Source: an uncultured Alphaproteobacteria bacterium (GTDB lineage: Bacteria; Pseudomonadota; Alphaproteobacteria; CAAHEQ01; UBA3637). Taken from it: DNA of 64,000 bases. Positions 5,946 to 63,232 of this stretch are shown in pieces. The translations under genes and the position numbers were made by a program. Location: the NCBI GenBank assembly GCA_937906925.1, contig CALCTR010000029.1, positions 12,119 through 76,118 on the forward strand. The letters run 5' to 3'. Under the pieces are notes generated by a model. That model saw only the letters and a program-made list of their open reading frames with translations. It did no database searches and had not been told where the DNA came from. Numbering within the stretch: the first letter of the stretch is position 1; the number at the start of each line of letters is the position of its first letter.

Positions 5946-6019
5946 TTAAACAAACTTTTTAAATCATACCATTTTAGGATAATTTTTGCAAGTAGAACCT
6001 TTGTTTATTTATAATTAAA

Positions 6020-6057
6020 ACAAGGTATTGAATAACTTTCATTACTCAATACCCTGT
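6020..6057 (-). terminator. Intercistronic hairpin between dnaK and dnaJ (attenuator/partial terminator)
   Basis: 16-bp arms with 2 mismatches (acaaggtattgaataa / ttactcaataccctgt) and a 6-nt loop. Only T4 follows on the minus strand. Confidence 0.45.
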
Positions 6058-6078
6058 TTTTGTTTAAAAATATTAAAA

Positions 6079-7986
6079 TTATTTTTTCACTTCTTCAAAA
6101 TCAGCATCCACAACCGTATCGTCTGATTGTTGCGAAGCTGCAGAATCCGCTGTTTCAGCACCGGCAGAAGCTCCATCTGCTTGTTGTTGCTTGTACATTG
6201 CTTCACCTAATTTTAAAGAAGTTTGCGTTAAAGCATTTGTTTTTTCTTTAATACGTTCTGCATCATTGCTATCCAATACATCTTTTAATTCCTGAACGGC
6301 TTTTTCAATAGCCTCTTTATCTGAAGACGGTATCTTATCTCCGTTTTCTTTTAATAATTTTTCTGTTTCATGAATTAAAGCATCAGCATGATTACGTGCT
6401 TCAATAGCTTCTTTAATCTTCTTATCTTCTTCAGCATGTTGCTCAGCTTCTTTAATCATTTTTTCAATATCGTCATCTTTTAAACCACCAGATGCCTGGA
6501 TACGGATATTTTGTTCTTTACCTGTTGCTTTATCTTTTGCAGATACATTAACGATACCGTTGGCGTCAATATCAAAAGTAACTTCAATCTGAGGCATGCC
6601 TCTTGGTGCCGGCGGAATACCAATTAAATCAAATTGACCCAACAATTTGTTATCTCTGGCCATTTCGCGTTCTCCTTGATGAACACGAATGGTTACCGCT
6701 GTTTGACCATCTTCTGCTGTTGAGAAAACCTGACTTTTCTTCGTAGGGATGGTTGTATTTCTGTCAATCAAACGCGTAAAGACGCCGCCTAACGTTTCAA
6801 TACCTAATGATAATGGGGTAACATCAAGCAATAAAACATCTTTAACGTCGCCTTTTAACACGCCGCCTTGAATGGCTGCACCCATAGCAACAACCTCATC
6901 CGGGTTTACACCTTTATGCGGTTCTTTTCCAAAGAAATCTTTAACAATTTCTTGAACTTTTGGCATACGGGTCATACCACCAACCAAGATAACTTCATCA
7001 ATTTGGGAACGAGATAAACCGGCATCCTTTAAAGCCTTTTCCATAGGGCCTTTTGTTCTGGCCAATAAATCCTCTACCAAACTTTCTAACTTTGCACGTG
7101 TCAATGAAACATTTAAGTGTTTTGGACCAGTTGCATCAGCTGTAATAAACGGCAAATTAATGTCTGTTTGTGTTGCGGAAGAAAGTTCTATTTTTGCTTT
7201 TTCGGCCGCCTCTTTTAAACGTTGTAAAGCCATTCTGTCTTTACGTAAATCAATACCGTTTTCTTTTTGGAACTCATCTGCCAAGAAGTCCATAATACGG
7301 GCATCAAAATCTTCACCACCCAAGAATGTATCACCGTTTGTTGCTTTAACTTCAAAAACACCATCACCGATTTCCAAAATAGATACGTCAAAGGTACCAC
7401 CGCCTAAGTCATAAACAGCAATCATACCTGATTTTTTCTGATCCATACCATAAGCAAGAGCGGCAGCTGTCGGCTCATTGATGATTCTTAAAACTTCAAG
7501 ACCTGCAATTTTACCAGCATCTTTTGTTGCTTGACGTTGCGAATCGTCAAAATATGCCGGAACCGTGATAATAGCTTGCGTGATTTTTTCACCCAAATAG
7601 CTTTCGGCATCTTCTTTTAATTTTTGTAAGACAAAAGCTGAAATCTGGCTGGGTGCATATTTTTTATCATTAACATCTACCCATGCATCACCATTTTCAC
7701 CCTCTACAATTTTATAAGGAACTAACCCCTTATCTCTTTCAACCATTTTATCATTAAAACGACGACCAATTAACCGTTTGATTGAAAATAATGTACCGCC
7801 CGGGTTTGTAACAGCCTGCCGTTTTGCAGCCTGACCGACCAAACGCTCTCCTTTTGAAGTAAAGGCAACCATAGATGGTGTCGTTCTGGCACCCTCTCTG
7901 TTTTCCAACACCTTACCGTCTTTGCCATCCATAATAGCCATACAGGAGTTGGTTGTACCTAAGTCAATTCCTAATATTTTAGACAT
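6079..7986 (-). CDS. dnaK: Molecular chaperone DnaK (Hsp70)
   Basis: 635-aa ORF with [17 protein letters not shown] and [11 protein letters not shown] signatures along its full length. Confidence 0.98.
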
Positions 7987-14232: not shown

Positions 14233-17200
14233 CTAAAAGTTTTGTTTCAATCTCATCATACCGCCATGCTCTTGATGTGATTGTCTAAAGGCTCCCGTAT
14301 ATTCAAGAGATAACTCTGTTAAATCACTCAACTGAGCATCTACACCCAATCTAAGGGCCGTACTAAGCGGTGAAAGGGCATCACCCTCAACAACGTAGAC
14401 TGCTTTATTATCTAAAGTATTAACACCTTTTACATCATCAGCCCCTACGTCATATCCAAATAAAACACTCGCTTGCGGTATAATTTTTAAACCACCGATA
14501 GTTCTAGTTGGTGCCGCAAAATCAATGCCAGCCAACATCGTCATATATCTGCTTGTATTATTATCCACATGTGTACCCAAAGAATCTATATACGCCTCTT
14601 GTGTAATATCCATATAACGAGCACCGACCTTAGGCGTAACAACACCAAAATCAAAAGCCAAATCATAGCCTAACATCGCTTGTGCGGTGAAGGTATCAAC
14701 ATTATAGGTGGCTGATGCAGCTGTTGAAAGGATTTGTTTATCTTCTTCATATTGAGATCTGGAGTAACCAACAACACCTTCAACAAACCAAACAGATGGT
14801 TGATATTTGGCAAAGGCAAATGCTGTGTTGGTATCAGCAACGGTATCTCTACCGGTTTGCTCCACATCAGCATGCCCGTATGCATAACCGATACCCATCG
14901 TTAAATCATCATTAACTTTTCTTTGGACACCCAAGACAAAACCGGTTCCTTGAACTTTAAAGCCGTCATCATTTTCATTTTTCACATGATTATAAAGACC
15001 TTTAACCCAAACAGAAGAATTGGGGACATCATCACCACCGGATAACCCTTTAACTTTTGATGTCAACCTTGTGTTATCTGCAATAGCCCCTGTTATACCT
15101 TCAAAGTGATCTGTTGCAATAGTTGTAATAACAGGATTAAAATTACCACCCAATCGGTCTAAAGAATCTACAGCTCTTTTAACTGCCGCAGAATTACCTG
15201 ATTGCAAATGTTCAATTAACTCTGTTTGCAATTTAGCAAAATCCGCATTAGTGGTTCCAAGATTTTCATGCAAAGCCATAATAGCTCCTGTTTGATTTTT
15301 ATCAGAACCAAAATGCTTAGATACTTCTGATGCTTCTTTAGAGATAAATGAATAACGTCCATCAGCCATATCTAAGAACGTATGACTATCGTTATGAACA
15401 GCTGTCGGCAGGGATTCAATATTGTCCATTTTAACAACGTTATACAATCCCATTTCAAAATCTTTACCCAACTCAAAATCTATTTGAGAACCGGATTTTG
15501 CAACAAGGTTTGTACCTGAAAGAGTACCAAAATCATCCAATCCGTTTAGTCCGATTTTTAAAGACGTATCTTCTTTCAAAACAACATCTTTGGCTTTAAC
15601 GTCTATATTTCTAATATCTAAAGTTGATTGTTTTTGTACCGTTAAATCTGCAACTTCTATGTCTTTAATATTTTCACTAAAAATCATATTATTGCTGACA
15701 AGATTATTGCTTGTTTTAAAGCTATCCTGAACTGTTAATTTAGCATTATTCATCGCTAACGTACCGGTACCGGATAAGGCGTTTTTAATTTCCAAATCGT
15801 TTGTTGCAACAATTTTATTTTTATTTTCAACAGAGTCAAAAACAACCTTGTCAGCATCTATTACACCTTCATTTACAACTGTATCAGCCATTGTCTGATT
15901 AAGTGTTGCCGTTCCTGTATTTTTAAGCGTCTTAATTACTCCATCTGAAACAGTTGCATTTAAGGCATTTGTCAGCGTTTCAATTTTATCTTTTGTTGAA
16001 GTAAATTCAGAACTGTTTGTTACATCACCCAAAACCGTATTAAGAGATGTCAATACACCTTTATTATTAAGTGTTGTAACAATAGTTCCTTCTTTTAATT
16101 CGGCCATAGAATTATTGTCAAAATCAACAATTTCTCCACCTGATACCGTTAATTGATTATCATTTGTTGCCATTTCAACTTTTGTATTTGTTAAAGAGGC
16201 ATTTCCCTGATTATTCAATGTCTTAATTACACCTCCTGAAACGCTTGCATTCAATGTATTTGTAAGCGTTTCAACTTTATCATCCGTTGATGTAAATTCA
16301 GATCTGTTTGTTACATTTGTTAAAACCGAGTTTTGTGAAATTAAAACACCGGTATTGTCAAGCGTTGTAACCGTATCATTTTTAAGAGTTGCTTCAGCCT
16401 TATTTATCAACGAGTTAATTGTATCATTTTCAGAGATAAAACTGGCCTCATTTTCCAATTCTTGTAACCCAGATGATTGTGAAACCAATACACCCTCGTT
16501 TTTAACCCCTTGTAACATAGAACCGTTACTGACCAAAAGTTTACCATTTTCTTTATTGTAAACAGAAGCTTTTTCATCTTCAATTCTAACATTATTTAAT
16601 GTTAAACCATACTCTAAGGCATTAGAACCTGTCGCCTCATTCACAATAACATTTGTTTTATCCGGATTAGCCATATCCTTTATAACAACGTTATCAAAAA
16701 ACGCCTCACCGTCTGAGATATTTAATACAGAAGTAGCATTTTTAATACTGAGGTTTTCAACCGTCAATTTTGTTGCCTCATTTGCAACATTAAACATGGA
16801 GAAGCCACCGGCATCAATCGTACTATCAGCAGCATTTAAAGAAGCACCTTGTACCAACTTTTGACCAACATTGGTATTACCAAGTTCTTTTGTCATTTCA
16901 TAGACACCATCGTTTTCAAGTGTCATATAAAAATTACTGTTACCATCATATTGGTTAATATGGGCAAGGGATTCGCCGTTTGTAATACCGACCGCATCAA
17001 TTTGTACGTCTTGTAACTTACCAGAAGTTTTATTCTCAACAATGCTTGTTCCATAAGTATAAGCGTTTGTTACAGCATTGAAAGCACTTTCATAGTCTGT
17101 ATCAAACACAGCATTACCTGATAAAACTTGTGTTGTATAAGAGGTTAAGATACCGTTATCTTTATTGGCATCTTCTTTATTAAATCCGGTCGGAACAACC

Positions 17201-20200
17201 TTAAAGTTAGCATTTTCAGCACTAAATGTATAGGTGTTATTTCCCGTTACGGCAAATAAATCCGATTTTGCGGTTAATCCGTTAAACGAATCATCTTGAG
17301 CATTTGAGATAAGACCAATATCTATAGAAAGTTTGGTCCCTGAACCGGCTATATTTTCAACTTGAACCGTTGAATATTCACCATCTTGCATATCAATATT
17401 ACCACCGTTAAAGGAGTATGTTTCACCAAGATAATCGCCTTTACTTAGCTGAACGGTTGCATTATCAAATTTAACCGTATCAGCTTTAACTCCGGTTTCC
17501 CCCATATCTTTTGCCAGTGTATACGTACCGTTTTTAAAGGTTACTTCACTTGCCTTACCGGTATTATTAATAGAAATATTATTGGCATTATTAACGGTTG
17601 CATTGCCTAATGCATCATGTGTAATAACACCACCTGTTGCAACAGCAGTATAATCTAAAGAATCACCACTTGTATTTAGCTTACCACCTTTAATTATATT
17701 TGTACCACCAAAGAAATTAGTGCTATCAGCTGTGGTTGTACCATCTGTTTGCGTAAATGTACCCTTAAAGTTTTTATTATCACCACTTGCAAAAGTTAAG
17801 GTGCCGCTATTGTTTATATTGCCAACGCCTTTAACGCCTCCTTCTAAGGCAACAGTTCCACTTATATTTATATCTCCGCCATTTGCTGATGTTAAACCGG
17901 ATACAGTTGTCATTCCTTCTAATCTAATAGCGCCATCATTATTGGTAAGGGCTGTAATATCGCCATTGCTAACCGTTGTTTGACCTTTATTTTCAAGTGT
18001 TGTAACAGTTGAATCTACAAGATCTATAGCACCTGCATTTTCATTTTTTACCAAAGTGATTGTAGCATCTGTAAGCGTTGCCTCACCCGTATTTGTTAAA
18101 TCAGCAATTGTATCACCATCTGATACAAAGCTATCACTGTTTGTTACAGAACCCATCTGTGTATTTGTAGAAGCAAGAACACCACTGTTTGCTACACTTT
18201 GAAGTGTTGCATTAGTTGCTTCTAATTTAGCTCCTGTTGCAACCGTTGTATTACCACCAACTGTTGCTGTTTTTTCATCACCGATTAAAGCAACTGTACC
18301 ATCGCTGACTGTTAACGTGTTTGTAATATCCGCATCTGTAAGCGTTGCCACTCCGGTATTGGTTAAATCTGCAATCGTGTCGCCATCTGATACAAAGCTA
18401 TCGCTATTTGTTACAGAACCCATCTGTGTGTTTGTAGAAGCAAGAACACCACTGTTTGCTACACTTTGAAATGTTGCATTAGTTGCTTCTAATTTAGCTC
18501 CTATTGCAACCGTTGTATCGCCACCAACAGAAACTGTTTTTGACCTACCCGTTAATGTAGCTGTTCCCCCGTCTACAGTCAATGTATTTGTGATCTTCGT
18601 ATCTGTGAGTATAGCTTTACCGGTATTGATTAAAGTACCAATCTCACCATTTGTAACCTCACCCCAATAACCATTATTTTCAAGTGCTACAATTTCATCA
18701 CCATCAGAGGTGAAACTGGAATTATTTATCATTTTGTTTATTTTTGAATTTTGAGATGTAAAAGCTACCTTGTTTGTTACTTCATCAACAGATGAGCTGG
18801 ATAACTCTACATAGTTTTTATTCGTTATATCCTGTAATTTACTGTTATTTACAAACAACTGACCGTTTATATCATTTTGTATCAAACCTTTTTCATCTTC
18901 TATAAACACATTGTTTAATGTCAAATTATTTGAGGCATTAGAAATAATGGCGTCTCCCTCTTTATTTTTAGTATTTGAAATAACCACATTATTTAACTCA
19001 GCCCTACCTTTTGACATCGTTAAAACAGAGGTTGCCCCTTGAATCTCTAAATCTTTAATGAGCAAATCCGTTCCGGCATTATTAACATTAAACATTGATT
19101 GTTCATTAGCATCAATAACGCTTTTAACTTCTCCATCAACAGCACCCTGAATGGTCTTTTTACCACTACCTGTTTCACCTAAACCGATATTACCTGTTTG
19201 TTTAGCCATATCATACCATTTTTCAGAAGCATTGATATAAAAAGCACTATCTCCATCATATTGATTAACAGCTTTTAACGAGTTACCATCAGCAGAACGA
19301 ATCGCTGTTAAATCAATACTCTTTGCATCTTGATTTAGAGAAACTTCATACTGATATACATCAGTTGAAACAAAAGCATTATTTTCAGCCGGTGTTTTAA
19401 ATGTTAAATTATTCCCCAACAATACTTGCTTGGTTAAAGAGGTTACTAAACCCGAATCACCAACCGCAGCATTGTTGATAATGTTAACTCTATTTAAGTC
19501 CAAATTAACCAAACCGGAGCCATTTGTCCGTTGCAATGTATCCACAACCATTGTTAATGAACCATCAACCATTTTTAATTCTGCATCAAATGCCAAATTT
19601 GCATTTTCAAGCCCCAAGCTATCAAATGTTGTTGCTGAAATAGCAGAATTTCTGAGGTCCACCAAACTATTCTTAAATCCATATTCAACACCAGTATATG
19701 TAGCATCATTTAACGCAACCGTCGCATTTTCAAAGGTAACGGCTCCACCCGTTCCCATATTGTTTAGTGCGTAAGCTCCGTTTTTAAAGGTAGCACTTCC
19801 GGCTGTCATTGTAATCTTATTTGGTAAAGATGCTTCTGTGCCTGTATGTGTATGTTCTAAAGAACCCCCATTGACAGTAGCCGTATAATCTAAAGAATCA
19901 CCTCTTGTATTTAGCTTACCACCTTCAATTATATTTGTACCACCAAAGAAATTAGTGCTATCAGCTGTGGTCGTACCACCTATTTGCGTAAATGTACCCT
20001 TAAAGTTTGTATTATCACCACTTGCAAAAGTTAAGGTGCCGCTATTGTTTATATTGCCAACGCCTTTAACGCCTCCTTCTAAGGCAACAGTTCCACTTAT
20101 ATTTATATCTCCGCCATTTGCTGATGTTAAACCGGATACAGTTGTTATTCCTTCTAATCTAATAGTGCCGGCATTGTTGCTAAGGGCTGTAATCTCACCA

Positions 20201-23200
20201 TCCTCAACCGTTGTTTGACCTTTATTTTCAAGTGTTGTAACGATTGAATCTACAAGATCTATAGCTCCCGCATTTTCATTTTTCACCAAAGTGATTCTAG
20301 CATCTGTAAGCGTTGCCTCACCCGTATTTGTTAAGGATGTAATCGTATCGCCATCTGATACAAAGCTATCACTGTTTATTACAGAATCCATCTGTGTGTT
20401 TGCGGAGGTAAGAACACCCTCATTTATTACATCTTGCAAAGTGCTAGCTGTTGCTGATATCTTACCTATATTTTTAATATCACCAGATGTTGTATCTATG
20501 TTTACCCGATCTAAATTTAAAGTTCCTTTATTATTAAAAGCAGTGTATTCAAACACACTTGATATTGGTGTCTCACCTGAATTTTGAATATTAACATCCC
20601 TAAATGTTGCAGTTTTACCACTTTCTATATTGGCAACCAAACTAGCATTTTGAATAGCCAAATCATTAACAGTTAAATTGCCACTATTATTTTGCAAATC
20701 AAAAAGATTATATCCATTTGCATTGATAACAAAACCTAATCCACCTATATCTGGCTTGACAGGAAATAAAGGCATATTTGAGGGATCATCAAATTCCGGA
20801 TATGCCGCATATCCTTGAACGATTTTATTTCCACCTCCCAATACACCCAAAGAGCCATTTTTTAAATCATTTTCCGTAACGGTATAAATATTTTTACCAT
20901 TATTTTCTGCAGCTGCATTTTGGACACTAAAAACAGCTTCTCCCTCATAACGATTAGTTACACCAAGTCCTGCAGAAACAAATTTTATATCTTGATTATT
21001 ATTAACCAAAGTCATATATCCCAACTCTTTGGTTGAAAGATATTTCATATCCGTCGGAACAGAGCTCTCATCAAATACAACGTTCCCATTTAAAACATCA
21101 TAGGTATAACCAACTCCTGAATAATTTAAGCCTACCGTTCCCACATTCAACTGAACCGGTGTGTTTGTTAAACTTGTACCGGCTGTCAACGTCTTACCTA
21201 AAGCAAAATTCAAGGTACTACCTGTACCTGCCAAATTATCAAAAGAAACATTTCCCTCTAAATTTAATGAAGTATCATTAAATGTATATGTTATACCTTG
21301 ATAATTTGTATCCAAAAAATCAACAGAAGCATCATTAAAAACTAATTTATTTGTATTGCTTATTGAAGCACCCATATTTTCTATTTCATAGGAACCATTA
21401 TTAAGAGTTATAACAGCATCATCAGCATCCATGTTAAACGAATATTTATCTGACACATTTATTTTTTCTGAACCGGTATTTGTATGAGTGATTTTTCCAC
21501 CTCTCCTTACACCTGCACTATAATCTAAAGAAGCCCCCTGAGTGATAAGTTCCCCACCCTCAATAATATTTTCTCCGGTAAAAAACTTTGTACTGTCAGC
21601 GATTGTAGTACCGGAAGTTTGTATAAACGTACCTGTAAAAGAGGTGTTATCAGATGCTTTTGAAAAATCATCTAATGCTAAATAAAGCGTACCGGTACTA
21701 CTTTTTGTAATTGTACCGGAACCTGCAATACCGCCATCTACTATATATTCGCTTGCATCGGTAGATCCAGCACTCCACATTGAACCAAATGTAAGTGTTG
21801 ACCCACTTGACATATAAATATCTTTGGAATTAGCAGAAGAATTAGCCACCTGATTGCCCGTAAAACTAACACCACCTTCAATAGTTAAATCTCCAGTATT
21901 ATAGATAGCCCCTCCCTCATTGGTGGCCGTATTATTGATAAAACTTGTTGACGTTAAACCCATTCTACCGGCATTATAAATGGCACCACCATTTGTTCCA
22001 GCCGTATTATTTTCAAAAGTTGTATTCTTTATATGCATATCACCACTAGCAGCATTATAAACAGCACCACCACTCGCTTCAGCGTGATTACCCTCTGCCT
22101 CAGTATCTCCGCCAAATAATGTCTCAATTCTATCAATACCTATTTCCATGGCTCCTTCGTTATAAACAGCACCACCATTTGTTTTTGCCGTATTACCAGA
22201 AAACGTACCTTTTAAAGAAAGTCCGGACTCAGAATCCAAAATAAAAGCACCATACCCCAAAATTCTGGCTTCGCTGTTTTTACCACTATTCCAAATGGCC
22301 CCACCCGATTCTGTTGTTGCGTGGTTATTTATAAATGTAGAAGTACCCATTAAATTCATAAATTTAGTGTTATAAATTGCCCCACCGGAACTTGCTGTAT
22401 TACCTTCAAATCGTGCATCCTCATCAATTTTTACACCATAAGTATCTATATTAAAACCATCTAAAAAATCTCTTAGTGTACCTCCCTCGTTATAAATCGC
22501 CCCACCATTACCAGTAATTGATTTGTTACCATTAAAGGTTGCTATGTTCTCAAACGCGATAACTCCACCATATCTATTATAGATAGCACCGCCATTATTT
22601 GTTGATTCATTAGAACTGAAATCTACCTCGGAATCAAAAGACATAGTGCCACCAATATTATTAGCAATCGCCCCTCCAACATTGGTTGCCGTGTTAAAGA
22701 TAAAATCCACACCAGAATCAAAAGACATTGCACCATTATTATAAATCGCCCCACCATTTGAGGATGCTTTGTTAGAGGTAAATGTCGCCGTATTACCAAA
22801 CTCCATGGCTCCACTATTATAAATCGCCCCACCTCCAGATAAAGCTATGTTATTTTTAAACTCGGATGTACCTGAGAAATTAATTATAGCAGGAGCTGTT
22901 GACCCGGCATAGCTATCATTATAAATAGCACCACCAGAAGAGGCTGAGTTACCATCAAATGTTGCCTTTTTACCACTTGCAAATTCAACTAATGACATCT
23001 TATTATAAATGGCGCCACCGTCTGAACTTGAAACAACCGTATCATTTGCATCTTTTACAATTGTTGTGTTGTTTGTAAATGTTGTATTCCCTTTAAATTT
23101 AACTTCTGAACGGGCTGTTTCATATTCGCTTTGATTGGTTGTTAAATAAATTGCACCACCGCCATTGTCTGAAGTTCCTGCTGTTGTATTTGTAACTTTG

Positions 23201-24495
23201 TTTTCTTCAAACACAACATCACCATAAAATTCGGCTTTTGCACCTAATCTATTGCTTAACGCACCACCTGCAGCACCTGCTTGGTTACCCACAAATCTTA
23301 CGGTTACTGGATCTGAATCTAAGCCAACTGTTAAACTTGCTGCTGAGGCACCATTTAACACACCGCCACCCCATTGTCGTGCAGTGTTATTGCTGATTAA
23401 AAGCTCAGATCCTGCAGATATGTTTGTAACATTAACCGTTCCTTGGTTGAAAAGACCACCACCATTTTGACCGCTTGAGTTTTGACTGATGGTTGTTCCA
23501 TTTGTTATATTAAGCGTTCCTGAACGTTGATTGTTGATTCCACCGCCATTACCTGTTGCTTCGTTTTGCGTAAATTCTGCTCCGCCATTAAACGTGATGG
23601 TTCCATCATCATTATAAATCGCACCACCTACGGATGCTTCGTTAGAGGTAAATGTTGCGGTGTTAGTAAATTCAATGGTTTCATAATTATAAATCGCCCC
23701 ACCCTCGGATGCTGTGTTAGAGGTGAATTCTGCTGTGTTATCAAACGTGATGTATCCACCATTATAAATCGCCCCACCCAAGCCATCTGTTGCTTTGTTA
23801 GAGGTAAAATCTGCATCAGCATTAAAAGACATGTTTCCACCACAGGCATTACTAATCGCCCCACCAGAGCCATTTGTTGCTTTGTTTTCTGTAAATGTTG
23901 CGGTGTTAGCAAATTCAATGGTTTCATAACTATTAAAAATCGCTCCACCCTCGGATGCTGTGTTATTCTCAAATGTTGCGGTGCTACCAAACTCAATGGT
24001 TCCACCATTATCAATCGCCCCACCAACGCTGGATGCTGTGTTAGAGCTAAATGTTGCGGTGCTACTAAACGTAATGGTTCCACCACCATCATTACTAATC
24101 GCCCCACCATAGGAGGAGGATGCTGTGTTAGAGATAAAATCTGCATCGGCATTAAAAGACATGTTTCCACCACAGGCATTACTAATCGCCCCACCAGAGT
24201 AGGATGCTGTGTTAGAGATAAAATCTGCATCGGCGTTAAAAGAAATATTACCACGATTAGCAATCACCCCGCCAGACGACCCGGATGCTGTTAATCCACT
24301 GGCTGTTATAGCTTCTTCATAAGTTAAAGAAGAACCAGGACCATTATTAACAGGCTTAGTTATTGTTTCTGCTGTTGCCGGTGTAGACAAGGTAATCACA
24401 CCAAAAGCCATTAAATTTGCAAGGAAGCATTTTTTTAGAACATTTAAATACCGTTTTTTCAGTTCTCTAAGAGTGGTTCTTGAATAGTGCATCAT
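14233..24495 (-). CDS. Giant (3420 aa) type Va autotransporter adhesin-like protein with Pmp (polymorphic outer membrane protein) repeats
   Basis: AAGGAGG RBS and a long N-terminal signal-like region (MMHYSRTTLRELKKRYLNVLKKCFLANLMAFGVITLSTPATA). The first ~900 aa hold more than twenty GGAI(Y/S/F)N plus FxxN repeats. PATR-like segments (SGTLTFASGDNTNFKGTFTQ..GTT.ADST.FF) occur three times. The C-terminal ~270 aa is an alternating-hydrophobic beta-barrel ending in ...MRLKQNF. Confidence 0.92.
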   Translation of the reverse strand: MMHYSRTTLRELKKRYLNVLKKCFLANLMAFGVITLSTPATAETITKPVNNGPGSSLTYEEAITASGLTASGSSGGVIANRGNISFNADADFISNTASYSGGAISNACGGNMSFNADADFISNTASSSYGGAISNDGGGTITFSSTATFSSNTASSVGGAIDNGGTIEFGSTATFENNTASEGGAIFNSYETIEFANTATFTENKATNGSGGAISNACGGNMSFNADADFTSNKATDGLGGAIYNGGYITFDNTAEFTSNTASEGGAIYNYETIEFTNTATFTSNEASVGGAIYNDDGTITFNGGAEFTQNEATGNGGGINNQRSGTLNITNGTTISQNSSGQNGGGLFNQGTVNVTNISAGSELLISNNTARQWGGGVLNGASAASLTVGLDSDPVTVRFVGNQAGAAGGALSNRLGAKAEFYGDVVFEENKVTNTTAGTSDNGGGAIYLTTNQSEYETARSEVKFKGNTTFTNNTTIVKDANDTVVSSSDGGAIYNKMSLVEFASGKKATFDGNSASSGGAIYNDSYAGSTAPAIINFSGTSEFKNNIALSGGGAIYNSGAMEFGNTATFTSNKASSNGGAIYNNGAMSFDSGVDFIFNTATNVGGAIANNIGGTMSFDSEVDFSSNESTNNGGAIYNRYGGVIAFENIATFNGNKSITGNGGAIYNEGGTLRDFLDGFNIDTYGVKIDEDARFEGNTASSGGAIYNTKFMNLMGTSTFINNHATTESGGAIWNSGKNSEARILGYGAFILDSESGLSLKGTFSGNTAKTNGGAVYNEGAMEIGIDRIETLFGGDTEAEGNHAEASGGAVYNAASGDMHIKNTTFENNTAGTNGGAIYNAGRMGLTSTSFINNTATNEGGAIYNTGDLTIEGGVSFTGNQVANSSANSKDIYMSSGSTLTFGSMWSAGSTDASEYIVDGGIAGSGTITKSSTGTLYLALDDFSKASDNTSFTGTFIQTSGTTIADSTKFFTGENIIEGGELITQGASLDYSAGVRRGGKITHTNTGSEKINVSDKYSFNMDADDAVITLNNGSYEIENMGASISNTNKLVFNDASVDFLDTNYQGITYTFNDTSLNLEGNVSFDNLAGTGSTLNFALGKTLTAGTSLTNTPVQLNVGTVGLNYSGVGYTYDVLNGNVVFDESSVPTDMKYLSTKELGYMTLVNNNQDIKFVSAGLGVTNRYEGEAVFSVQNAAAENNGKNIYTVTENDLKNGSLGVLGGGNKIVQGYAAYPEFDDPSNMPLFPVKPDIGGLGFVINANGYNLFDLQNNSGNLTVNDLAIQNASLVANIESGKTATFRDVNIQNSGETPISSVFEYTAFNNKGTLNLDRVNIDTTSGDIKNIGKISATASTLQDVINEGVLTSANTQMDSVINSDSFVSDGDTITSLTNTGEATLTDARITLVKNENAGAIDLVDSIVTTLENKGQTTVEDGEITALSNNAGTIRLEGITTVSGLTSANGGDINISGTVALEGGVKGVGNINNSGTLTFASGDNTNFKGTFTQIGGTTTADSTNFFGGTNIIEGGKLNTRGDSLDYTATVNGGSLEHTHTGTEASLPNKITMTAGSATFKNGAYALNNMGTGGAVTFENATVALNDATYTGVEYGFKNSLVDLRNSAISATTFDSLGLENANLAFDAELKMVDGSLTMVVDTLQRTNGSGLVNLDLNRVNIINNAAVGDSGLVTSLTKQVLLGNNLTFKTPAENNAFVSTDVYQYEVSLNQDAKSIDLTAIRSADGNSLKAVNQYDGDSAFYINASEKWYDMAKQTGNIGLGETGSGKKTIQGAVDGEVKSVIDANEQSMFNVNNAGTDLLIKDLEIQGATSVLTMSKGRAELNNVVISNTKNKEGDAIISNASNNLTLNNVFIEDEKGLIQNDINGQLFVNNSKLQDITNKNYVELSSSSVDEVTNKVAFTSQNSKINKMINNSSFTSDGDEIVALENNGYWGEVTNGEIGTLINTGKAILTDTKITNTLTVDGGTATLTGRSKTVSVGGDTTVAIGAKLEATNATFQSVANSGVLASTNTQMGSVTNSDSFVSDGDTIADLTNTGVATLTDADITNTLTVSDGTVALIGDEKTATVGGNTTVATGAKLEATNATLQSVANSGVLASTNTQMGSVTNSDSFVSDGDTIADLTNTGEATLTDATITLVKNENAGAIDLVDSTVTTLENKGQTTVSNGDITALTNNDGAIRLEGMTTVSGLTSANGGDINISGTVALEGGVKGVGNINNSGTLTFASGDNKNFKGTFTQTDGTTTADSTNFFGGTNIIKGGKLNTSGDSLDYTAVATGGVITHDALGNATVNNANNISINNTGKASEVTFKNGTYTLAKDMGETGVKADTVKFDNATVQLSKGDYLGETYSFNGGNIDMQDGEYSTVQVENIAGSGTKLSIDIGLISNAQDDSFNGLTAKSDLFAVTGNNTYTFSAENANFKVVPTGFNKEDANKDNGILTSYTTQVLSGNAVFDTDYESAFNAVTNAYTYGTSIVENKTSGKLQDVQIDAVGITNGESLAHINQYDGNSNFYMTLENDGVYEMTKELGNTNVGQKLVQGASLNAADSTIDAGGFSMFNVANEATKLTVENLSIKNATSVLNISDGEAFFDNVVIKDMANPDKTNVIVNEATGSNALEYGLTLNNVRIEDEKASVYNKENGKLLVSNGSMLQGVKNEGVLVSQSSGLQELENEASFISENDTINSLINKAEATLKNDTVTTLDNTGVLISQNSVLTNVTNRSEFTSTDDKVETLTNTLNASVSGGVIKTLNNQGNASLTNTKVEMATNDNQLTVSGGEIVDFDNNSMAELKEGTIVTTLNNKGVLTSLNTVLGDVTNSSEFTSTKDKIETLTNALNATVSDGVIKTLKNTGTATLNQTMADTVVNEGVIDADKVVFDSVENKNKIVATNDLEIKNALSGTGTLAMNNAKLTVQDSFKTSNNLVSNNMIFSENIKDIEVADLTVQKQSTLDIRNIDVKAKDVVLKEDTSLKIGLNGLDDFGTLSGTNLVAKSGSQIDFELGKDFEMGLYNVVKMDNIESLPTAVHNDSHTFLDMADGRYSFISKEASEVSKHFGSDKNQTGAIMALHENLGTTNADFAKLQTELIEHLQSGNSAAVKRAVDSLDRLGGNFNPVITTIATDHFEGITGAIADNTRLTSKVKGLSGGDDVPNSSVWVKGLYNHVKNENDDGFKVQGTGFVLGVQRKVNDDLTMGIGYAYGHADVEQTGRDTVADTNTAFAFAKYQPSVWFVEGVVGYSRSQYEEDKQILSTAASATYNVDTFTAQAMLGYDLAFDFGVVTPKVGARYMDITQEAYIDSLGTHVDNNTSRYMTMLAGIDFAAPTRTIGGLKIIPQASVLFGYDVGADDVKGVNTLDNKAVYVVEGDALSPLSTALRLGVDAQLSDLTELSLEYTGAFRQSHQEHGGMMRLKQNF
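14236..15020 (-). other. Autotransporter translocator (beta-barrel) domain-coding segment
   Basis: From WVKGLYNHVKNEND to the terminal F. Shows the amphipathic beta-strand periodicity and aromatic terminus typical of autotransporter beta-domains. Confidence 0.75.
17648..18190. repeat. Direct repeat copy A (543 bp) inside the autotransporter gene
   Basis: Aligns without indels to 19883-20425 (constant offset of 2235 bp). I counted about 38 mismatches by eye. It includes a 136-nt perfectly identical run (17775-17910 = 20010-20145). Confidence 0.9.
18071..18604. repeat. Tandem 267-bp (89-codon) repeat, two full units plus a degenerate third
   Basis: Units start with gtaagcgttgcc at 18071 and 18338, and with gtgagt at 18605. 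The encoded peptide ...ATLTDADITNTLTV..G...AKLEATNAT.QSVANSGVLASTNTQMGSVTNSDSFVSDGDTIADLTNTG is repeated. Confidence 0.85.
19883..20425. repeat. Direct repeat copy B (543 bp) inside the autotransporter gene
   Basis: Partner of 17648-18190. The same-frame track ORFs 17720-17983 and 19955-20218 (plus strand) are near-identical artefacts of this repeat. Confidence 0.9.
21880..24290. repeat. Pmp-repeat coding array (~28-codon periodicity) with locally identical DNA copies
   Basis: Reiterated GGAIxN/FxxN units. One example is the 49-nt identical stretch at 23821-23869 and 24151-24199 (offset 330). Another is the 84-nt-offset copies around 24119-24245. This array generates the long spurious ORFs in other frames. 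Confidence 0.85.
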
Positions 24496-57369: not shown

Positions 57370-57627
57370 ATGTACACAGAAGAAGATTATAATTTTCAAA
57401 TCAAAGTTGAAAAAACGATTGATGCATACGGTAAAACCGGCTATGGATGCGGTTGTTTGACAGGTATCATTTTTATGGCAGCCTTAGTTACTTATCTGCT
57501 TACCCCTAGCGTTAACCTTGAAGAACTCGGCAAAAAATGGCAGCAAGAAAATTCAACCCAACCACAAAAAGTTAAGCCTGCTAAAAAGAAATTTGTTCCC
57601 ATTATCAGAAGTAATCAACGATATTAA
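57370..57627 (+). CDS. Small single-pass membrane protein, paralog 1
   Basis: 85 aa. YTEED..., then DAYGKTGYGCGCLTGIIFMAALVTYLL (TM), then a basic PQ-rich tail. Paralogous to the next ORF. Confidence 0.6.
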   Translation: MYTEEDYNFQIKVEKTIDAYGKTGYGCGCLTGIIFMAALVTYLLTPSVNLEELGKKWQQENSTQPQKVKPAKKKFVPIIRSNQRY

Positions 57628-57638
57628 AAGAGGCAATC

Positions 57639-57884
57639 ATGCAATATACAGATGAAGAAAAAAGAATTTTAAGAACCGCTAGAACAGATGCCTTTTGTGC
57701 CGGTTTTAGACGTGGCTGTTGTATGACAGGTTTTATCATGAGCATTATGACTTTTATGCTTTTTTCTATGTGCGGAAATAAACCAATGGATAAAAACTAC
57801 CCACATTTAAATAAAAAACCTCAACCCGTTCAAAAAGCAACATTAAACATAAAAAAATTAAAAACAACTGATCATACACGTTAA
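57639..57884 (+). CDS. Small single-pass membrane protein, paralog 2
   Basis: 81 aa. YTDEE..., then DAFCAGFRRGCCMTGFIMSIMTFMLF (TM), then a basic PQ-rich tail. AGAGG RBS. Confidence 0.6.
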   Translation: MQYTDEEKRILRTARTDAFCAGFRRGCCMTGFIMSIMTFMLFSMCGNKPMDKNYPHLNKKPQPVQKATLNIKKLKTTDHTR

Positions 57885-58527: not shown

Positions 58528-58556
58528 ACTATAAAAAAAAGTGTTTTTTTTGTCAA
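58528..58556 (-). promoter_or_regulatory. Sigma70 promoter of the HAD hydrolase gene
   Basis: The minus strand reads TTGACA, 17-nt spacer, TATAGT, 18 nt upstream of the ATG. Confidence 0.6.
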
Positions 58557-58578
58557 TACATTTTGCAATATAAAAATA

Positions 58579-58607
58579 TTGACAAATATTTGTTTTTTTG
58601 ATATAAT
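58579..58607 (+). promoter_or_regulatory. Perfect consensus sigma70 promoter of the tandem-HEPN-motif gene
   Basis: TTGACA (58579-58584), 17-nt spacer, TATAAT (58602-58607), then AAGGAG 5 nt before the ATG. Confidence 0.75.
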
Positions 58608-58630
58608 ACCATAAAACCTAAGGAGAAAAA

Positions 58631-59986
58631 ATGCCCCCACAAATTCATTTTACTTTGCAAGATATTAAAAATATCACCGATGCCTTTACATGGTTTTATC
58701 ACGAAAGTTTGTATTATCAGATTGCAAAAATGTATCTAACCCCCATTGTTCTTTTAGAAAAACTTAAAAGAGAGCATTTTTTTGATGTAACAGTACAAAA
58801 TCCGGGACAAACATCTAAAGAACAACTTAAAAAAAATGAAACTTTTTGTGCCGTGTCGTACGTTGACAGATTTATATTAGACCATAAAAAACAAGGCATA
58901 CCACTCCCCGATATACTAAAAAAATTAAAAAAAGATATTCGTGAATACAAAAAAATAACCGAATTGGATTTAGCTTGTTTAGATGGTCTCATCACTGTTT
59001 TTAACAAAGAAGATACTCTATTAAAAAATTTTAAAGGCGTTGTCCAAAAAGGTATGACCCTTTCAGCAACGAAAAACAGAAAAACAAGTTTTAGAACAGC
59101 CATTAAAAATGAAGCTGTTTTACTGGATTTTTGCAAAAAAGTTTATATTTTAGATTTACTTTGGCACCAAAAAGGAAAGGATGCGACACAACAAGATTTT
59201 CACACTTATCAAATTCTTTTTGAACGACATATTCTTTTAAATGAATTTAAAAAAGACGTTATTCCGGCATTCATTCAACTTGTTGAAACAACGAGAAAAT
59301 TTTTATATACTGCTTTAACTACACATCACTCTTTACAAATTGCTTTTTCTTTAGAAGAAGCCAAAAACACACTAAAAAATGACAAATCCCTCATTTTTAA
59401 ATATGCCGAACAATTTGGTTATATTGAAGATAAAGAACCCTTTATTTCTTTTCAGAAAATACGCGACAAACTGGCTCACCCGTCAACCGAACAAAATATT
59501 GTTTCTTATTTACCTGATCTTGAAAAAATTGAAAGTACTTTTCTTTCATTCTTTAAAAATCTGACAAACAAACCAAATCTTTCTGTTTATCGCCTAAATG
59601 AAACGGATACCCCTAAAAAAACACCTTTAGCAGAATCAATTTACCCAACAAATATGCGGGGAAAAGAGGCTTTTGAACATTTATTACACACCGATGAAAT
59701 TGAATCCATTATTGCCCAATATCAAGGTCCACTTAACACAAAACAAAAAGAAATAACCGGCTTAAAAAAATTAGAATTTTTAAAAGATAAGGGACTGATT
59801 TTAGCAACTGATTTTGCGTTATTAGAACAGGCTATTTTACTTAGAAATGCGGTAGCTCATGCCAGTAGCGATGACACAACATATCAAAATATAAATGCCC
59901 TAAAAATTGATACGCAAAATATTTTACAAAACATCAAAAACCAACACAAAAAATTTGGTCCACGTGCGGCTATTTCACGGGTTTAA
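58631..59986 (+). CDS. Hypothetical protein with two R-x4-H (HEPN-like, DUF4145-like) motifs; candidate tandem-HEPN RNase
   Basis: 451 aa. Motif 1 is FGYIEDKEPFISFQKIRDKLAHPS (R278-H283, nt 59462-59479). Motif 2 is KGLILATDFALLEQAILLRNAVAHAS (R405-H410, nt 59843-59860). The N-terminal ~240 aa have no motif I can assign. Confidence 0.5.
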   Translation: MPPQIHFTLQDIKNITDAFTWFYHESLYYQIAKMYLTPIVLLEKLKREHFFDVTVQNPGQTSKEQLKKNETFCAVSYVDRFILDHKKQGIPLPDILKKLKKDIREYKKITELDLACLDGLITVFNKEDTLLKNFKGVVQKGMTLSATKNRKTSFRTAIKNEAVLLDFCKKVYILDLLWHQKGKDATQQDFHTYQILFERHILLNEFKKDVIPAFIQLVETTRKFLYTALTTHHSLQIAFSLEEAKNTLKNDKSLIFKYAEQFGYIEDKEPFISFQKIRDKLAHPSTEQNIVSYLPDLEKIESTFLSFFKNLTNKPNLSVYRLNETDTPKKTPLAESIYPTNMRGKEAFEHLLHTDEIESIIAQYQGPLNTKQKEITGLKKLEFLKDKGLILATDFALLEQAILLRNAVAHASSDDTTYQNINALKIDTQNILQNIKNQHKKFGPRAAISRV

Positions 59987-60433
59987 ATAGTCAATAACAA
60001 TATAGTTTTCACCTCGTTGCCATGCTTTAATGGCAGCTAAAACAAATCCCATCAAAGGGGTAGGCAATGCATTTAAATCATAAAAAGCGATACTTTCCGT
60101 TTTGTCAGGCTCTAAATTTTTAACAACCCCCTCATATGTATCCGTAAAAATAAAATAGTTGATAATATCAGCTTGTTTACCTTTATAAGGAGCATTTAAC
60201 AAATGAGCCATCATTTTTATTTCTAATTTATCTTTATCAAGAGTGATATTGGCCTCTTCTTTTGCTTCCCGTATCAAGGCATCAATAACGCCCTCCCCTT
60301 TATCCACATGACCTGCAACCGGACAATATAGTCCGCCCGTAAATTTACCCTTTCGTTTTTGCAACAAAATTTTTCCATCTTGAACAAGTAAAAGATGTGT
60401 TCCGATATATGGGGTTTGGTGTACTTCACTCAC
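59975..60433 (-). CDS. NUDIX hydrolase
   Basis: Near-canonical Nudix box GHVDKGEGVIDALIREAKEEANI (Gx5Ex7REUxEExxU). Confidence 0.85.
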   Translation of the reverse strand: MSEVHQTPYIGTHLLLVQDGKILLQKRKGKFTGGLYCPVAGHVDKGEGVIDALIREAKEEANITLDKDKLEIKMMAHLLNAPYKGKQADIINYFIFTDTYEGVVKNLEPDKTESIAFYDLNALPTPLMGFVLAAIKAWQRGENYIVIDYLNP

Positions 60434-60844: not shown

Positions 60845-60945
60845 ATATTCTCCTACTATCTGTTTTAAATTTTTTTATTATTTTTTGCAAGAAAAATTTG
60901 CGTTTTAAAAAAAAGGGTTTTAATATGAAAAAAAAGGAGATAAAT

Positions 60946-61326
60946 ATGAAAAAATTATTTTTACTTTCCAGCATTGTTTTGCTAGGTGCGTGTGGCGAAA
61001 AAAACGCTAATTTAAGAGGGAATGCCTATCAATATACACTAAATAACGTACCAATTATAATTGCCTTTGATAAAAATGAGAATCGCTATTTTGGAAAAGT
61101 TGTCAACAACTATTTTGGCACTTATACACAAAATGGTGGCGAATTAACACTTCATCTGGGCGGGTCCACTATGATGATAGGACCGGCAAATGAAATGGCG
61201 GTTGAACAAACCTGGTTAGAAACATTACCAACCGTTACCAAGGTTACCCAGACAAAAACCGGTATTATATTAACCCTTAAAGACGGCACAAAAATTAACC
61301 TCAAAAAAACAGCTATGCCCAAATAA
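60946..61326 (+). CDS. META-domain (HslJ-like) lipoprotein
   Basis: MKKLFLLSSIVLLGAC contains a lipobox. FGKVVNNYFGTYTQNGGELTLHLGGSTMMIGPANEMAVEQTWLETL resembles the META domain core. Start set at the ATG at 60946, behind AAGGAGA. Confidence 0.6.
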   Translation: MKKLFLLSSIVLLGACGEKNANLRGNAYQYTLNNVPIIIAFDKNENRYFGKVVNNYFGTYTQNGGELTLHLGGSTMMIGPANEMAVEQTWLETLPTVTKVTQTKTGIILTLKDGTKINLKKTAMPK

Positions 61327-61990: not shown

Positions 61991-62019
61991 TTGACAAATT
62001 ATATTTTTTACGCTATTTT
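61991..62019 (+). promoter_or_regulatory. Sigma70 promoter of the HExxH membrane protein gene
   Basis: TTGACA, 17-nt spacer, TATTTT. The track ORF start (TTG at 61991) is this -35 hexamer. Confidence 0.5.
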
Positions 62020-62047
62020 CTTGCCTAACAACAAGAGATTTAAAAGT

Positions 62048-63232
62048 ATGCCCTCTGATTTTTTAAAAGAACGTCTTATTAAAAACACAAAAAAACATAA
62101 ATTTTTAAAATGGTGCTACATTACCATCGGGTTGCTGGGATCACTGTACTGTACCCTCCAATTAAATAAAAAAGTACCCCCACCTAAACAATCCGAAACA
62201 TCTCTATTTTCACTAGACAAAAAGCATATATTACAAGCGTTTCTTTTTTTTAGCATTTGTCTTTCATCTGCAAGTAGTATCTCGCTTAGTTTTTATTATC
62301 CGAGAAAAAAAAGAACACCAAAATCTGTTTTAAATCATCTTAAATTTTCAAGCTCAAATGAAGAAACATCAAATCCTTACACCCCTCTTTCAAAGAGAGA
62401 TATCAAAAAAATACTCTCAAAAGTTGATTTATCCCATTTATCTGAGGAAAAACAAATCTTTTTTTTACAAAATTTAATTGATGTATCCAACAAGCATCCC
62501 TCTTTGGCAAAGTTATTTAAACAAGAGTTAATTCCAACAACGATCAAACATAAGGCAGCATTAAAATCAATTGGCTCTATTTCGCACCCAACTGATGTTA
62601 TTCAAAAAGGTCTTATCAATTTATCTCCCAAGAGTAATTTTTTAACATTTATCCACGAACTTATTCACGCCAAACAAATTTTAGATGGGACTTTTTATTT
62701 CAAGAGACTTTTACCTTTTGCAGCCTTTATAAATGAAGCACAGGCAAAAGCCTATACCATGCTGTTAAAAAAGGAAGAAGAGGCAGTGATGCACAAAATT
62801 GTAACGGCACGACGAAGTATCCTCAAAAATGAGAATCACCTCCTTAACGATAAAGAATTGCAAGGTAAAGCTGAGGAAGAAAGCGTCGCTGTTATAATTA
62901 ACTGTTTAATTAGTGAACATAACTTAACCGTTACGAGGGATACTTTATCAAAATTTTGCCCTAATGCTTTAACGGCAGAAGAAAGTCTGGATATTTATAA
63001 GTTGTGCCTCCTTTGGCGTATTAGTTATGAAAATAAAAATCTAAAAAATTTATCTCAAAAAATCAACAGGGGATTAAAAATATCTTCTAAAGAAATCTGT
63101 GCTTTTTCGCATTTAGACGCCTATTTTCAAAACAAAACAACCATTCCTGTTTGTATTAGGCAAACCCATATCACTCAAAGCGGTCATCCGCTTTACAAAA
63201 TTATCACCTCTTCTGATACGAACCAACGTTAA
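62048..63232 (+). CDS. Membrane-anchored hypothetical protein with gluzincin-like HExxH...NEA motif (candidate metalloprotease/effector)
   Basis: Two predicted TM helices (WCYITIGLLGSLYCTLQL, ILQAFLFFSICLSSASSISLSF). HELIH at nt 62654-62668, followed 22 residues later by INEAQA (compare thermolysin HELTH...INEAISD). Start set at the ATG at 62048. Confidence 0.6.
   Translation: MPSDFLKERLIKNTKKHKFLKWCYITIGLLGSLYCTLQLNKKVPPPKQSETSLFSLDKKHILQAFLFFSICLSSASSISLSFYYPRKKRTPKSVLNHLKFSSSNEETSNPYTPLSKRDIKKILSKVDLSHLSEEKQIFFLQNLIDVSNKHPSLAKLFKQELIPTTIKHKAALKSIGSISHPTDVIQKGLINLSPKSNFLTFIHELIHAKQILDGTFYFKRLLPFAAFINEAQAKAYTMLLKKEEEAVMHKIVTARRSILKNENHLLNDKELQGKAEEESVAVIINCLISEHNLTVTRDTLSKFCPNALTAEESLDIYKLCLLWRISYENKNLKNLSQKINRGLKISSKEICAFSHLDAYFQNKTTIPVCIRQTHITQSGHPLYKIITSSDTNQR

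Follow-up and report, generated by a model that had tools for sequence, protein, structure and literature searches.

The gene and its promoter

The window considered here, the whole stretch of 64,000 nucleotides (nt) that was analysed, comes from an uncultured Alphaproteobacteria bacterium and is ordinary chromosome carrying dnaK, bipA, bamA, ftsK and lipid A genes. The subject of this work is a gene at positions 58631–59986 on the plus strand, listed as an open reading frame (ORF) of 451 amino acids (aa) plus stop and supported by a syntenic orthologue of 69% identity. Its product probably belongs to a family of proteins with two HEPN domains in one chain, and we refer to it as the tandem-HEPN protein. 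The R-x4-6-H motif is the catalytic signature of HEPN ribonucleases (RNases), and two HEPN domains in a single chain are the defining feature of Cas13. An earlier note, made from the sequence alone, had pointed to two segments of this ORF with such a motif, and both are present: QFGYIEDKEPFISFQKIRDKLAHPS spans residues 261–285 and holds R278 and H283, and DKGLILATDFALLEQAILLRNAVAHAS spans residues 386–412 and holds R405 and H410.

The sigma-70 promoter of the gene is located at 58579–58607 on the plus strand and consists of TTGACA (58579–58584), a 17-nt spacer containing a TG at 58599–58600 (extended -10) and TATAAT (58602–58607). It matches the consensus at 12 of 12 positions, and an A-rich tract lies immediately 5' of the -35 box. 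TTGACA-17-TATAAT occurs once in the window, against an expectation of 0.11, and 11 of 100 shuffled windows also held one match. The Shine-Dalgarno sequence AAGGAG (58620–58625, plus strand) stands 5 nt ahead of the ATG and is also found in L001, the locus of the orthologue. Hence the perfect promoter and ribosome-binding site described earlier are both real. The start codon is confirmed by the N-terminal pattern M-x-[SP]-P-I-x-F, which is kept across the family (22-sequence alignment).

Comparison of eight loci, the window and seven distinct further contexts, reveals that the promoter is kept in all of them as TTGAC[AT] or TTGAAA-17-TAnnnT with scores of 9–12 out of 12. The distance from the end of the -10 box to the ATG is 19–26 nt in every locus, the TG extension is present in seven of the eight, and an A-rich tract again lies 5' of the -35 box. 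This arrangement persists at protein identities as low as ~24%. The promoter appears to be a trait of the family, and the gene is probably highly expressed as a self-contained unit. The 5' untranslated region inferred from these distances is only ~15–20 nt long and is therefore too short to accommodate a riboswitch, a guide RNA or an antitoxin RNA.

The promoter forms part of a back-to-back pair at 58528–58584, in which a minus-strand TTGACA-17-TATAGT (11/12) serves the divergent HAD-hydrolase gene and its -35 box is ~23 bp from the plus-strand -35 box. A TGTCAATA box is present at the equal distance upstream of the homologues in L001 and in a further locus, L008. The palindrome ACAAATATTTGT, which overlaps the -35 box, is, as judged by eye, not conserved in L001 or in a third locus, L012, and was ascribed to chance. 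At its other end the tandem-HEPN gene overlaps the convergent NUDIX gene (59975–60433, minus strand) by 12 nt (59975–59986); in L001 the two genes abut exactly. No terminator-like site was seen between them.

Conserved motifs and predicted domains

The first R-x4-H motif, R278-D-K-L-A-H283, is encoded at 59462–59479 and the second, R405-N-A-V-A-H410, at 59843–59860, both on the plus strand. The number of such motifs in the protein is not significant in itself, as there are three (at residues 80, 278 and 405) and at least two arise in 5.6% of residue shuffles. An exhaustive phmmer search of 1.84 billion representatives (E <= 1e-3) gave a family of 24 representatives (clusters at 50% identity), mostly 430–465 aa long and 25–37% identical over the matched stretches. 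A word-indexed search had found just the protein and one orthologue, and four proteins when the family alignment was used. Our alignment of the family consists of 22 sequences at 19–30% identity, the orthologue of 69% included. Six of its columns are invariant (R222, L225, L248, I255, R278 and H283) and seven further columns are at least 90% conserved (L229, K252, P284, I300, R405, N406 and H410). The first motif has the family form R-[DN]-x-[LI]-x-H-P, with R-[DN]-x-[LI]-x-H in 22 of 22 sequences. The second has the form R-N-x-x-[AGSC]-H-[GAN], and R-N-x3-H or R-L-x3-H is found in all sequences except a shorter one of 358 aa, in which most of the second domain has no aligned residues. Unlike the bare count, conservation at 19–30% identity makes the two motifs more than chance, and judged from the alignment they are the conserved core of a genuine protein family. 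The arginine and histidine residues that had been singled out as putatively catalytic are therefore conserved among homologues, R278 and H283 without exception and R405 and H410, together with N406, in at least 90%.

The orthologue (P0002), from a metagenome, is syntenic with the window protein, and the ratio of nonsynonymous to synonymous substitution rates (dN/dS) between the two is 0.17. A source or record name is available for two members, and both come from metagenome-assembled genomes labelled 'Alphaproteobacteria bacterium'. A scan of a genome collection with the window protein returned nothing, and the same scan with another member, P0034, returned just its own metagenome-assembled genome. 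The family is previously unclassified, and current libraries carry no annotation for it.

The second domain (residues 342–442; 59654–59956, plus strand) is modelled as four helices (342–361, 378–386, 392–409 and 415–442). The consensus of a hidden Markov model of residues 338–445 matches PF18735, HEPN_RiboL-PSP, with an E-value of 1.3e-7 and 32.2 bits (cutoff 28.4), and it also matches HEPN_MAE_28990 (E 2.4e-4) and DUF4145 (E 5.7e-4). Several individual members show sub-threshold matches of this domain to RiboL-PSP, DUF4145, HepT and MAE_28990. These profiles firmly point to a HEPN domain of the DUF4145/RiboL-PSP kind, in agreement with the earlier reading of the second motif as an RNxxxH form in a DUF4145-like context. 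The best actual member reaches 20.8 bits against PF18735 (P0017), which is under the gathering threshold, and the window protein gives no match. Since the consensus alone passes the cutoff, the domain is, by these scores, related to the PF18735 family but not a member of it.

The first domain (residues 161–312; 59111–59566, plus strand) is delimited by the AlphaFold model and the invariant columns. Its modelled helices comprise residues 161–184, 187–237 (with the invariant R222 and L225), 241–261 (with L248, K252 and I255), 268–281 and 297–312. The stretch preceding the HEPN region, which had been given as an unassignable N-terminal part of ~240 aa, is really ~158 aa long, because this HEPN-like domain already starts near residue 161. 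The consensus of residues 161–315 has a single NCBIfam match, to TIGR01987 (HI0074 HEPN), at an E-value of 0.047 over nearly the whole profile. Sub-threshold matches of single members are to HEPN_Cthe2314 (P0009 and P0020) and NTase_sub_bind (P0010). Profiles of residues 238–315 and 366–445 align with each other over 66 columns with a score of 19.4, while 60 column-shuffled controls gave a mean of 8.9, a standard deviation of 1.7 and a maximum of 13.2, so that the observed score is ~6 standard deviations above the control mean. The alignment path follows a K-rich helix, G-[YL]-I, a helix, R-x4-H and the last helix. This comparison of profiles confirms that the two segments are built alike, as the earlier note had noticed. 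Over both domains, sub-threshold matches of the members spread to seven Pfam families of the HEPN clan (RiboL-PSP in five members, DUF4145 in five, HepT-like in four, Cthe_2314 in three, MAE_28990 in three, NTase_sub_bind in one and Swt1 in one). Five HEPN families thus recur in three to five members, whereas all non-HEPN sub-threshold Pfam matches are singletons.

The N-terminal alpha/beta domain (residues 1–158; 58631–59104, plus strand) is predicted to contain helices at 13–47 and 77–104 and strands at 51–55, 71–75 and 109–146. It is the most variable part of the protein, with a mean pairwise identity in the family of 16%, compared with 32% in the core of the first HEPN domain and 21% in the second. 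Searches with its consensus and with members against Pfam, PADLOC, NCBIfam and PHROG gave no family, the PHROG results being noise only. The linker between the HEPN domains (residues 313–341; 59567–59653, plus strand) has no regular secondary structure in the model, contains large insertions and deletions and has a mean identity of 15%. A basic C-terminal tail (residues 443–451; 59957–59983, plus strand) ends the chain; for residues 446–451 the predicted local distance difference test score (pLDDT) is below 50, and the C-termini of the family are rich in K, R, Q and N.

The AlphaFold model built from the 22-sequence alignment has a pLDDT of 87.4 and a predicted template modelling score (pTM) of 0.84; an earlier model from two sequences (pLDDT 45) was discarded. 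Residues 161–312 and 342–442 are all-helical in the model, and each R-x4-H motif is located at the C-terminal end of a helix. The high pTM suggests that the domains have a defined mutual arrangement and nothing more. In a Foldseek search of the PDB every match with a probability above 0.5 is a small HEPN protein, namely 1wwp (0.96), 8xdj (0.90) and 1ylm (0.87), followed by 5yep, 7bxo, 1jog and 2hsb. A search against viral structures gave nothing credible.

Several results weigh against two HEPN domains in this protein. The window protein alone has no match among Pfam, NCBIfam, PADLOC and PDB-sequence profiles, so that the profile search suggested earlier succeeds for the consensus of the second domain and fails for the protein as such. 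The family and domain profiles found nothing meaningful among PDB sequences, and the consensus of the first domain has no match to Pfam HEPN models. The hhalign probability for the first domain against the second is just 15%. The structural search is likewise mixed, since the confident all-helical model finds only HEPN proteins above a probability of 0.5 but all E-values are ~1 or worse, none being <= 1e-3. The template modelling scores normalised to the target are 0.45–0.63, with the aligned query region not reported. No whole-chain analogue and no Cas13 structure was retrieved from the PDB. The proposal of two HEPN domains in one chain therefore stands by profile for the second domain, and for the first it depends on weak and indirect indications, on which the first domain may reasonably be read as a divergent HEPN.

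Genomic setting and rate of evolution

The tandem-HEPN gene is flanked in the window by the HAD-hydrolase gene upstream and the NUDIX gene downstream, and the same holds for L001. It is monocistronic amid housekeeping genes in all eight loci, where its neighbours include rho, mutS, rpsT, cspA, dnaA, recR/ybaB and MarC. No MNT, CRISPR, restriction-modification, integrase or transposase genes are linked to it in these loci. This survey of neighbourhoods agrees with the view of a stand-alone gene, and the stated lack of a CRISPR array, an MNT partner and a mobile element is borne out in the window and the seven other loci alike. A faint Polbeta match was found in L004, two genes from the HEPN gene and on the other strand. 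This 256-aa gene (5993–6763 of that locus, minus strand; nucleotidyltransferase) lies between Peptidase_S66 and NUDIX and was not treated as an MNT partner, as it has no conserved equivalent elsewhere.

No tandem or CRISPR-like array is present near the gene or elsewhere in the window. The only Rfam matches in the whole window are two tRNAs, and a search of 56–62 kb at E <= 1, RF03085 included, gave no match. No conserved non-coding region was seen beside the gene in the homologue loci. The GC fraction around the gene dips slightly (0.31 vs ~0.35). A tblastn search against phage and plasmid collections found no relative, and a search for paralogues with the family model across the loci found none, each locus having one copy.

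Remnants of synteny connect the loci. MarC follows downstream of the tandem-HEPN gene, directly in L011 and after 1.4 kb in the window; Peptidase_S66 and NUDIX stand beside it in both L004 and L001; and a gene for a BigA-like giant protein adjoins it in both L008 and L011. These remnants argue for vertical descent with rearrangement rather than transfer. Together with the housekeeping neighbours and the lack of phage or plasmid homologues in the collections searched, they argue for a vertically inherited chromosomal gene and not a mobile defence cassette.

The protein has diverged more than its surroundings. In a close pair of loci it is 69% identical vs 75–92% for the neighbouring enzymes, and in a distant pair 24% identical vs 47% for the adjacent MarC. 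By these comparisons it evolves faster than its neighbours, at about twice the rate of the adjacent genes.

Some other features of the window may be recorded here. A 3420-aa ORF at 14233–24495 (minus strand) consists of repeats of the Chlamydia-type polymorphic membrane protein (Chlam_PMP), and its DNA contains internal tandem repeats of 75–267 nt; the product is probably a giant protein of the cell surface or of autotransporter-like type. At the start of the window an 803-aa Lon-like protein (683–3094, plus strand) has LonB-type AAA and LonC helical domains. Two adjacent small ORFs of 85 and 81 aa (57370–57627 and 57639–57884, plus strand), each with a Cys/Gly-rich membrane-like segment and of no family, look like tandem paralogues, and both are present in L001 at 62% identity. 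At 60907–60954, where a META-domain lipoprotein gene starts, there are 2.3 copies of a 21-nt unit, AAAAAAAAGGAGATAAATATG, so that a Shine-Dalgarno sequence and ATG are duplicated in tandem and provide alternative in-frame starts. A 413-aa ORF at 61991–63232 (plus strand) has no Pfam family, hydrophobic N-terminal stretches and a HELIH motif (HExxH, zinc-protease-like), and may be an uncharacterised metalloprotease.

Relation to known HEPN systems and possible role

The best structural matches of the tandem-HEPN protein are HepT/HEPN toxins and HI0074-type subunits (8xdj, 5yep, 7bxo, 1jog and 1wwp, with probabilities of 0.72–0.96). The likeness extends to weak sequence matches (HepT-like, NTase_sub_bind and TIGR01987) and to the R-x4-H motif present in both. 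HEPN-MNT (type VII toxin-antitoxin) toxins are proteins of ~120–150 aa which form homodimers and are neutralised by an adjacent MNT nucleotidyltransferase. In contrast, the protein described here has two such domains per chain and an extra N-terminal domain, and no adjacent MNT in the eight loci.

The second domain resembles PF18735, DUF4145 (PF13643) and MAE_28990-like (PF18737) domains in having R-N-x3-H preceded by a helix, G-x-I and a helix. However, these are single-HEPN families, whereas the domain in our protein makes up the C-terminal third of a chain of three domains, one of which is a second HEPN. RiboL-PSP, DUF4145 and MAE_28990 domains are usually fused to or located beside restriction-modification, Abi and other conflict genes (PMC3710099), but no such neighbours are present at the tandem-HEPN loci. 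Csx1 of the MJ1666 type likewise has a recorded HEPN dyad (PMC3710099), but it differs from our protein in having a Rossmann/CARF domain. A literature lead to the 'tandem' retron type IX was dropped, as the tandem domains there are KH and not HEPN.

Cas13an proteins are 429–577 aa long, carry two HEPN domains and are encoded beside CRISPR arrays (PMC12165695). The tandem-HEPN protein shares with them two HEPN domains in one polypeptide, the first of them less certain, and with 451 aa it falls within their size range. However, no CRISPR array or guide RNA was found at the gene, which lies in a vertically inherited housekeeping region, in difference to Cas13 and Cas13an. A relationship to Cas13an was rejected, as hhalign of the family against 11 Cas13an sequences gave a probability of 0.2%; the Cas13an and the non-CRISPR comparison sequences consisted of the first 400 residues only. 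Foldseek has been reported to miss relations of this type (PMC12165695). The HEPN domains of Cas13an have been proposed to come from AbiD/F (PMC12165695). AbiD and AbiF (Abi_2, with RF03085) are HEPN RNases of defence and resemble the tandem-HEPN protein in being stand-alone; membership was rejected, since there is no Abi_2, PADLOC or Rfam match and no room for an upstream non-coding RNA.

Single-chain HEPN pairs outside CRISPR are rare, structure mining having found only twelve clusters with an intramolecular HEPN dimer in the AlphaFold database, most of them without CRISPR (PMC12165695). Among the entries excerpted from Table S2 of that study, the Bacillus A0A1Y6ANL6 and the Clostridium G7MBT4 are similar to our protein in being bacterial, ~450–510 aa long and without a CRISPR array. 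BLAST against the first 400 residues of these two gave no significant similarity, and they come from other taxa. In the same excerpt, by our own taxonomic placement, no entry is alphaproteobacterial except the Thermopetrobacter Cas13an. The tandem-HEPN family appears to be a separate example, compact at ~450 aa, with no guide RNA or partner and with an extra N-terminal domain.

The full explanation that we prefer, to which we assign a probability of about 0.6, is that the protein is a member of a new family of single-chain tandem-HEPN RNases. Its architecture would be a variable N-terminal alpha/beta domain of ~158 aa, a divergent HEPN domain with R278-x4-H283, a variable linker and a RiboL-PSP/DUF4145-like HEPN domain with R405-N-x3-H410. 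Most HEPN proteins act as homodimers. By analogy with such homodimers and with Cas13, the established HEPN enzymes from which the mechanism is drawn, the two domains are predicted to pack intramolecularly as a pseudo-dimer, as in Cas13, instead of forming a homodimer. The pair of R-x4-H motifs would then build one composite, metal-independent RNase site, with the predicted action of cleaving single-stranded RNA to give 2',3'-cyclic phosphate and 5'-OH ends. The N-terminal domain is proposed to be a module for substrate recognition or regulation. Expression would be autonomous, from the gene's own strong promoter, and would involve neither a guide RNA nor an antitoxin or a partner gene. Toxic RNases are not usually encoded behind a very strong constitutive promoter when there is no antitoxin, and this also counts against the explanation. 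Because an abundant RNase without regulation would be harmful, its activity must, if it exists, be gated or narrowly specific, and the gating would most plausibly involve the fast-evolving N-terminal domain. As to the role of such an enzyme, we place a resident, trigger-gated RNase of conflict or stress (Abi-like) slightly above a lineage-specific RNA-processing enzyme, because the divergence of the N-terminal domain is near-random, the protein evolves fast and the second domain has affinities with conflict systems.

A lineage-specific housekeeping RNase is a serious rival, though in our estimation unlikely. Its task would be the processing or turnover of a particular cellular RNA (rRNA, tRNA or mRNA), so that it would need no antitoxin and strong expression would be tolerable. 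Las1, Ire1 and Swt1 are eukaryotic HEPN RNases which act on cellular RNA. The chromosomal site amid rho, rpsT, cspA, recR/ybaB and dnaA fits such a role, as do the remnant synteny that points to vertical descent, the single copy per locus, the strong promoter and short leader kept across the family, the dN/dS of 0.17 and the lack of mobile, phage or plasmid links in our searches. However, recognition of a conserved RNA would not lead one to expect about twice the evolutionary rate of the adjacent genes and an N-terminal domain at 16% identity. Moreover, only a small set of uncultured genomes carries the family, and the nearest HEPN families have been described in conflict systems (PMC3710099).

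More speculative, and doubtful at present, is the idea of an independent, CRISPR-less fusion of an HI0074-like and a RiboL-PSP-like HEPN domain, which would have produced a compact, Cas13-like intramolecular RNase, strongly expressed and vertically inherited as a resident gene throughout the lineage. If true, this would amount to a new class of bacterial housekeeping HEPN RNase, or to a single-gene immune sensor-effector in which a hypervariable N-terminal domain reads the trigger.

That the protein is a secreted RNase effector or toxin seems improbable to us. Secretion would account for high expression and for the lack of an immunity or antitoxin gene, and it is consistent with the basic, poorly modelled C-terminal tail and the K/R/Q/N-rich C-termini of the family, with a homologue located ~6.5 kb from a VirB4-like gene, with the giant surface or autotransporter proteins encoded in these genomes and with the fast evolution of the protein. 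However, there is no signal peptide or transmembrane segment at the N-terminus, no secretion-system gene is consistently linked in the eight loci, and neither a polymorphic-toxin architecture nor an immunity gene is present; the argument from the tail is weak and unspecific.

We regard as very improbable a non-catalytic HEPN protein that binds a nucleotide or a partner, like the substrate-binding HEPN subunits of nucleotidyltransferases. The weak matches of the first domain to the HI0074/NTase_sub_bind group would suit it, but conservation in the family is highest at the two R-x4-H motifs and extends to the N of R-N-x3-H, and no nucleotidyltransferase partner is adjacent in the eight loci. An RNA-guided nuclease akin to Cas13an or AbiF, with its guide or antitoxin RNA encoded elsewhere, would agree with 451 aa and two HEPN domains per chain (Cas13an, 429–577 aa, PMC12165695), but it is highly improbable and the least favoured of all, given the window without a CRISPR array or repeat, the absence of Rfam matches near the gene (E <= 1, RF03085 included), the short flanking intergenic regions with a leader of ~15–20 nt, the hhalign probability of 0.2% against the 11 Cas13an sequences and the lack of Abi_2 or PADLOC matches.

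Taken as a family of single-chain tandem-HEPN RNases, these proteins are a new variant within the known HEPN superfamily and not a new kind of system, and their chemistry is predictable. The family deserves a model of its own because current libraries do not annotate tandem-HEPN proteins. Its architecture is rare and its expression signal unusual, with the gene fixed in the chromosome and preceded by a promoter that is among the strongest possible. If both motifs form one active site, the family would have arrived at an intramolecular HEPN nuclease by a second and independent route. How such enzymes are kept from doing harm when there is no antitoxin could then be learnt from it, and it might find use as a small RNase scaffold. 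Should its role instead prove to be housekeeping, bacteria would have in this protein an unusual counterpart of Las1 or Swt1.

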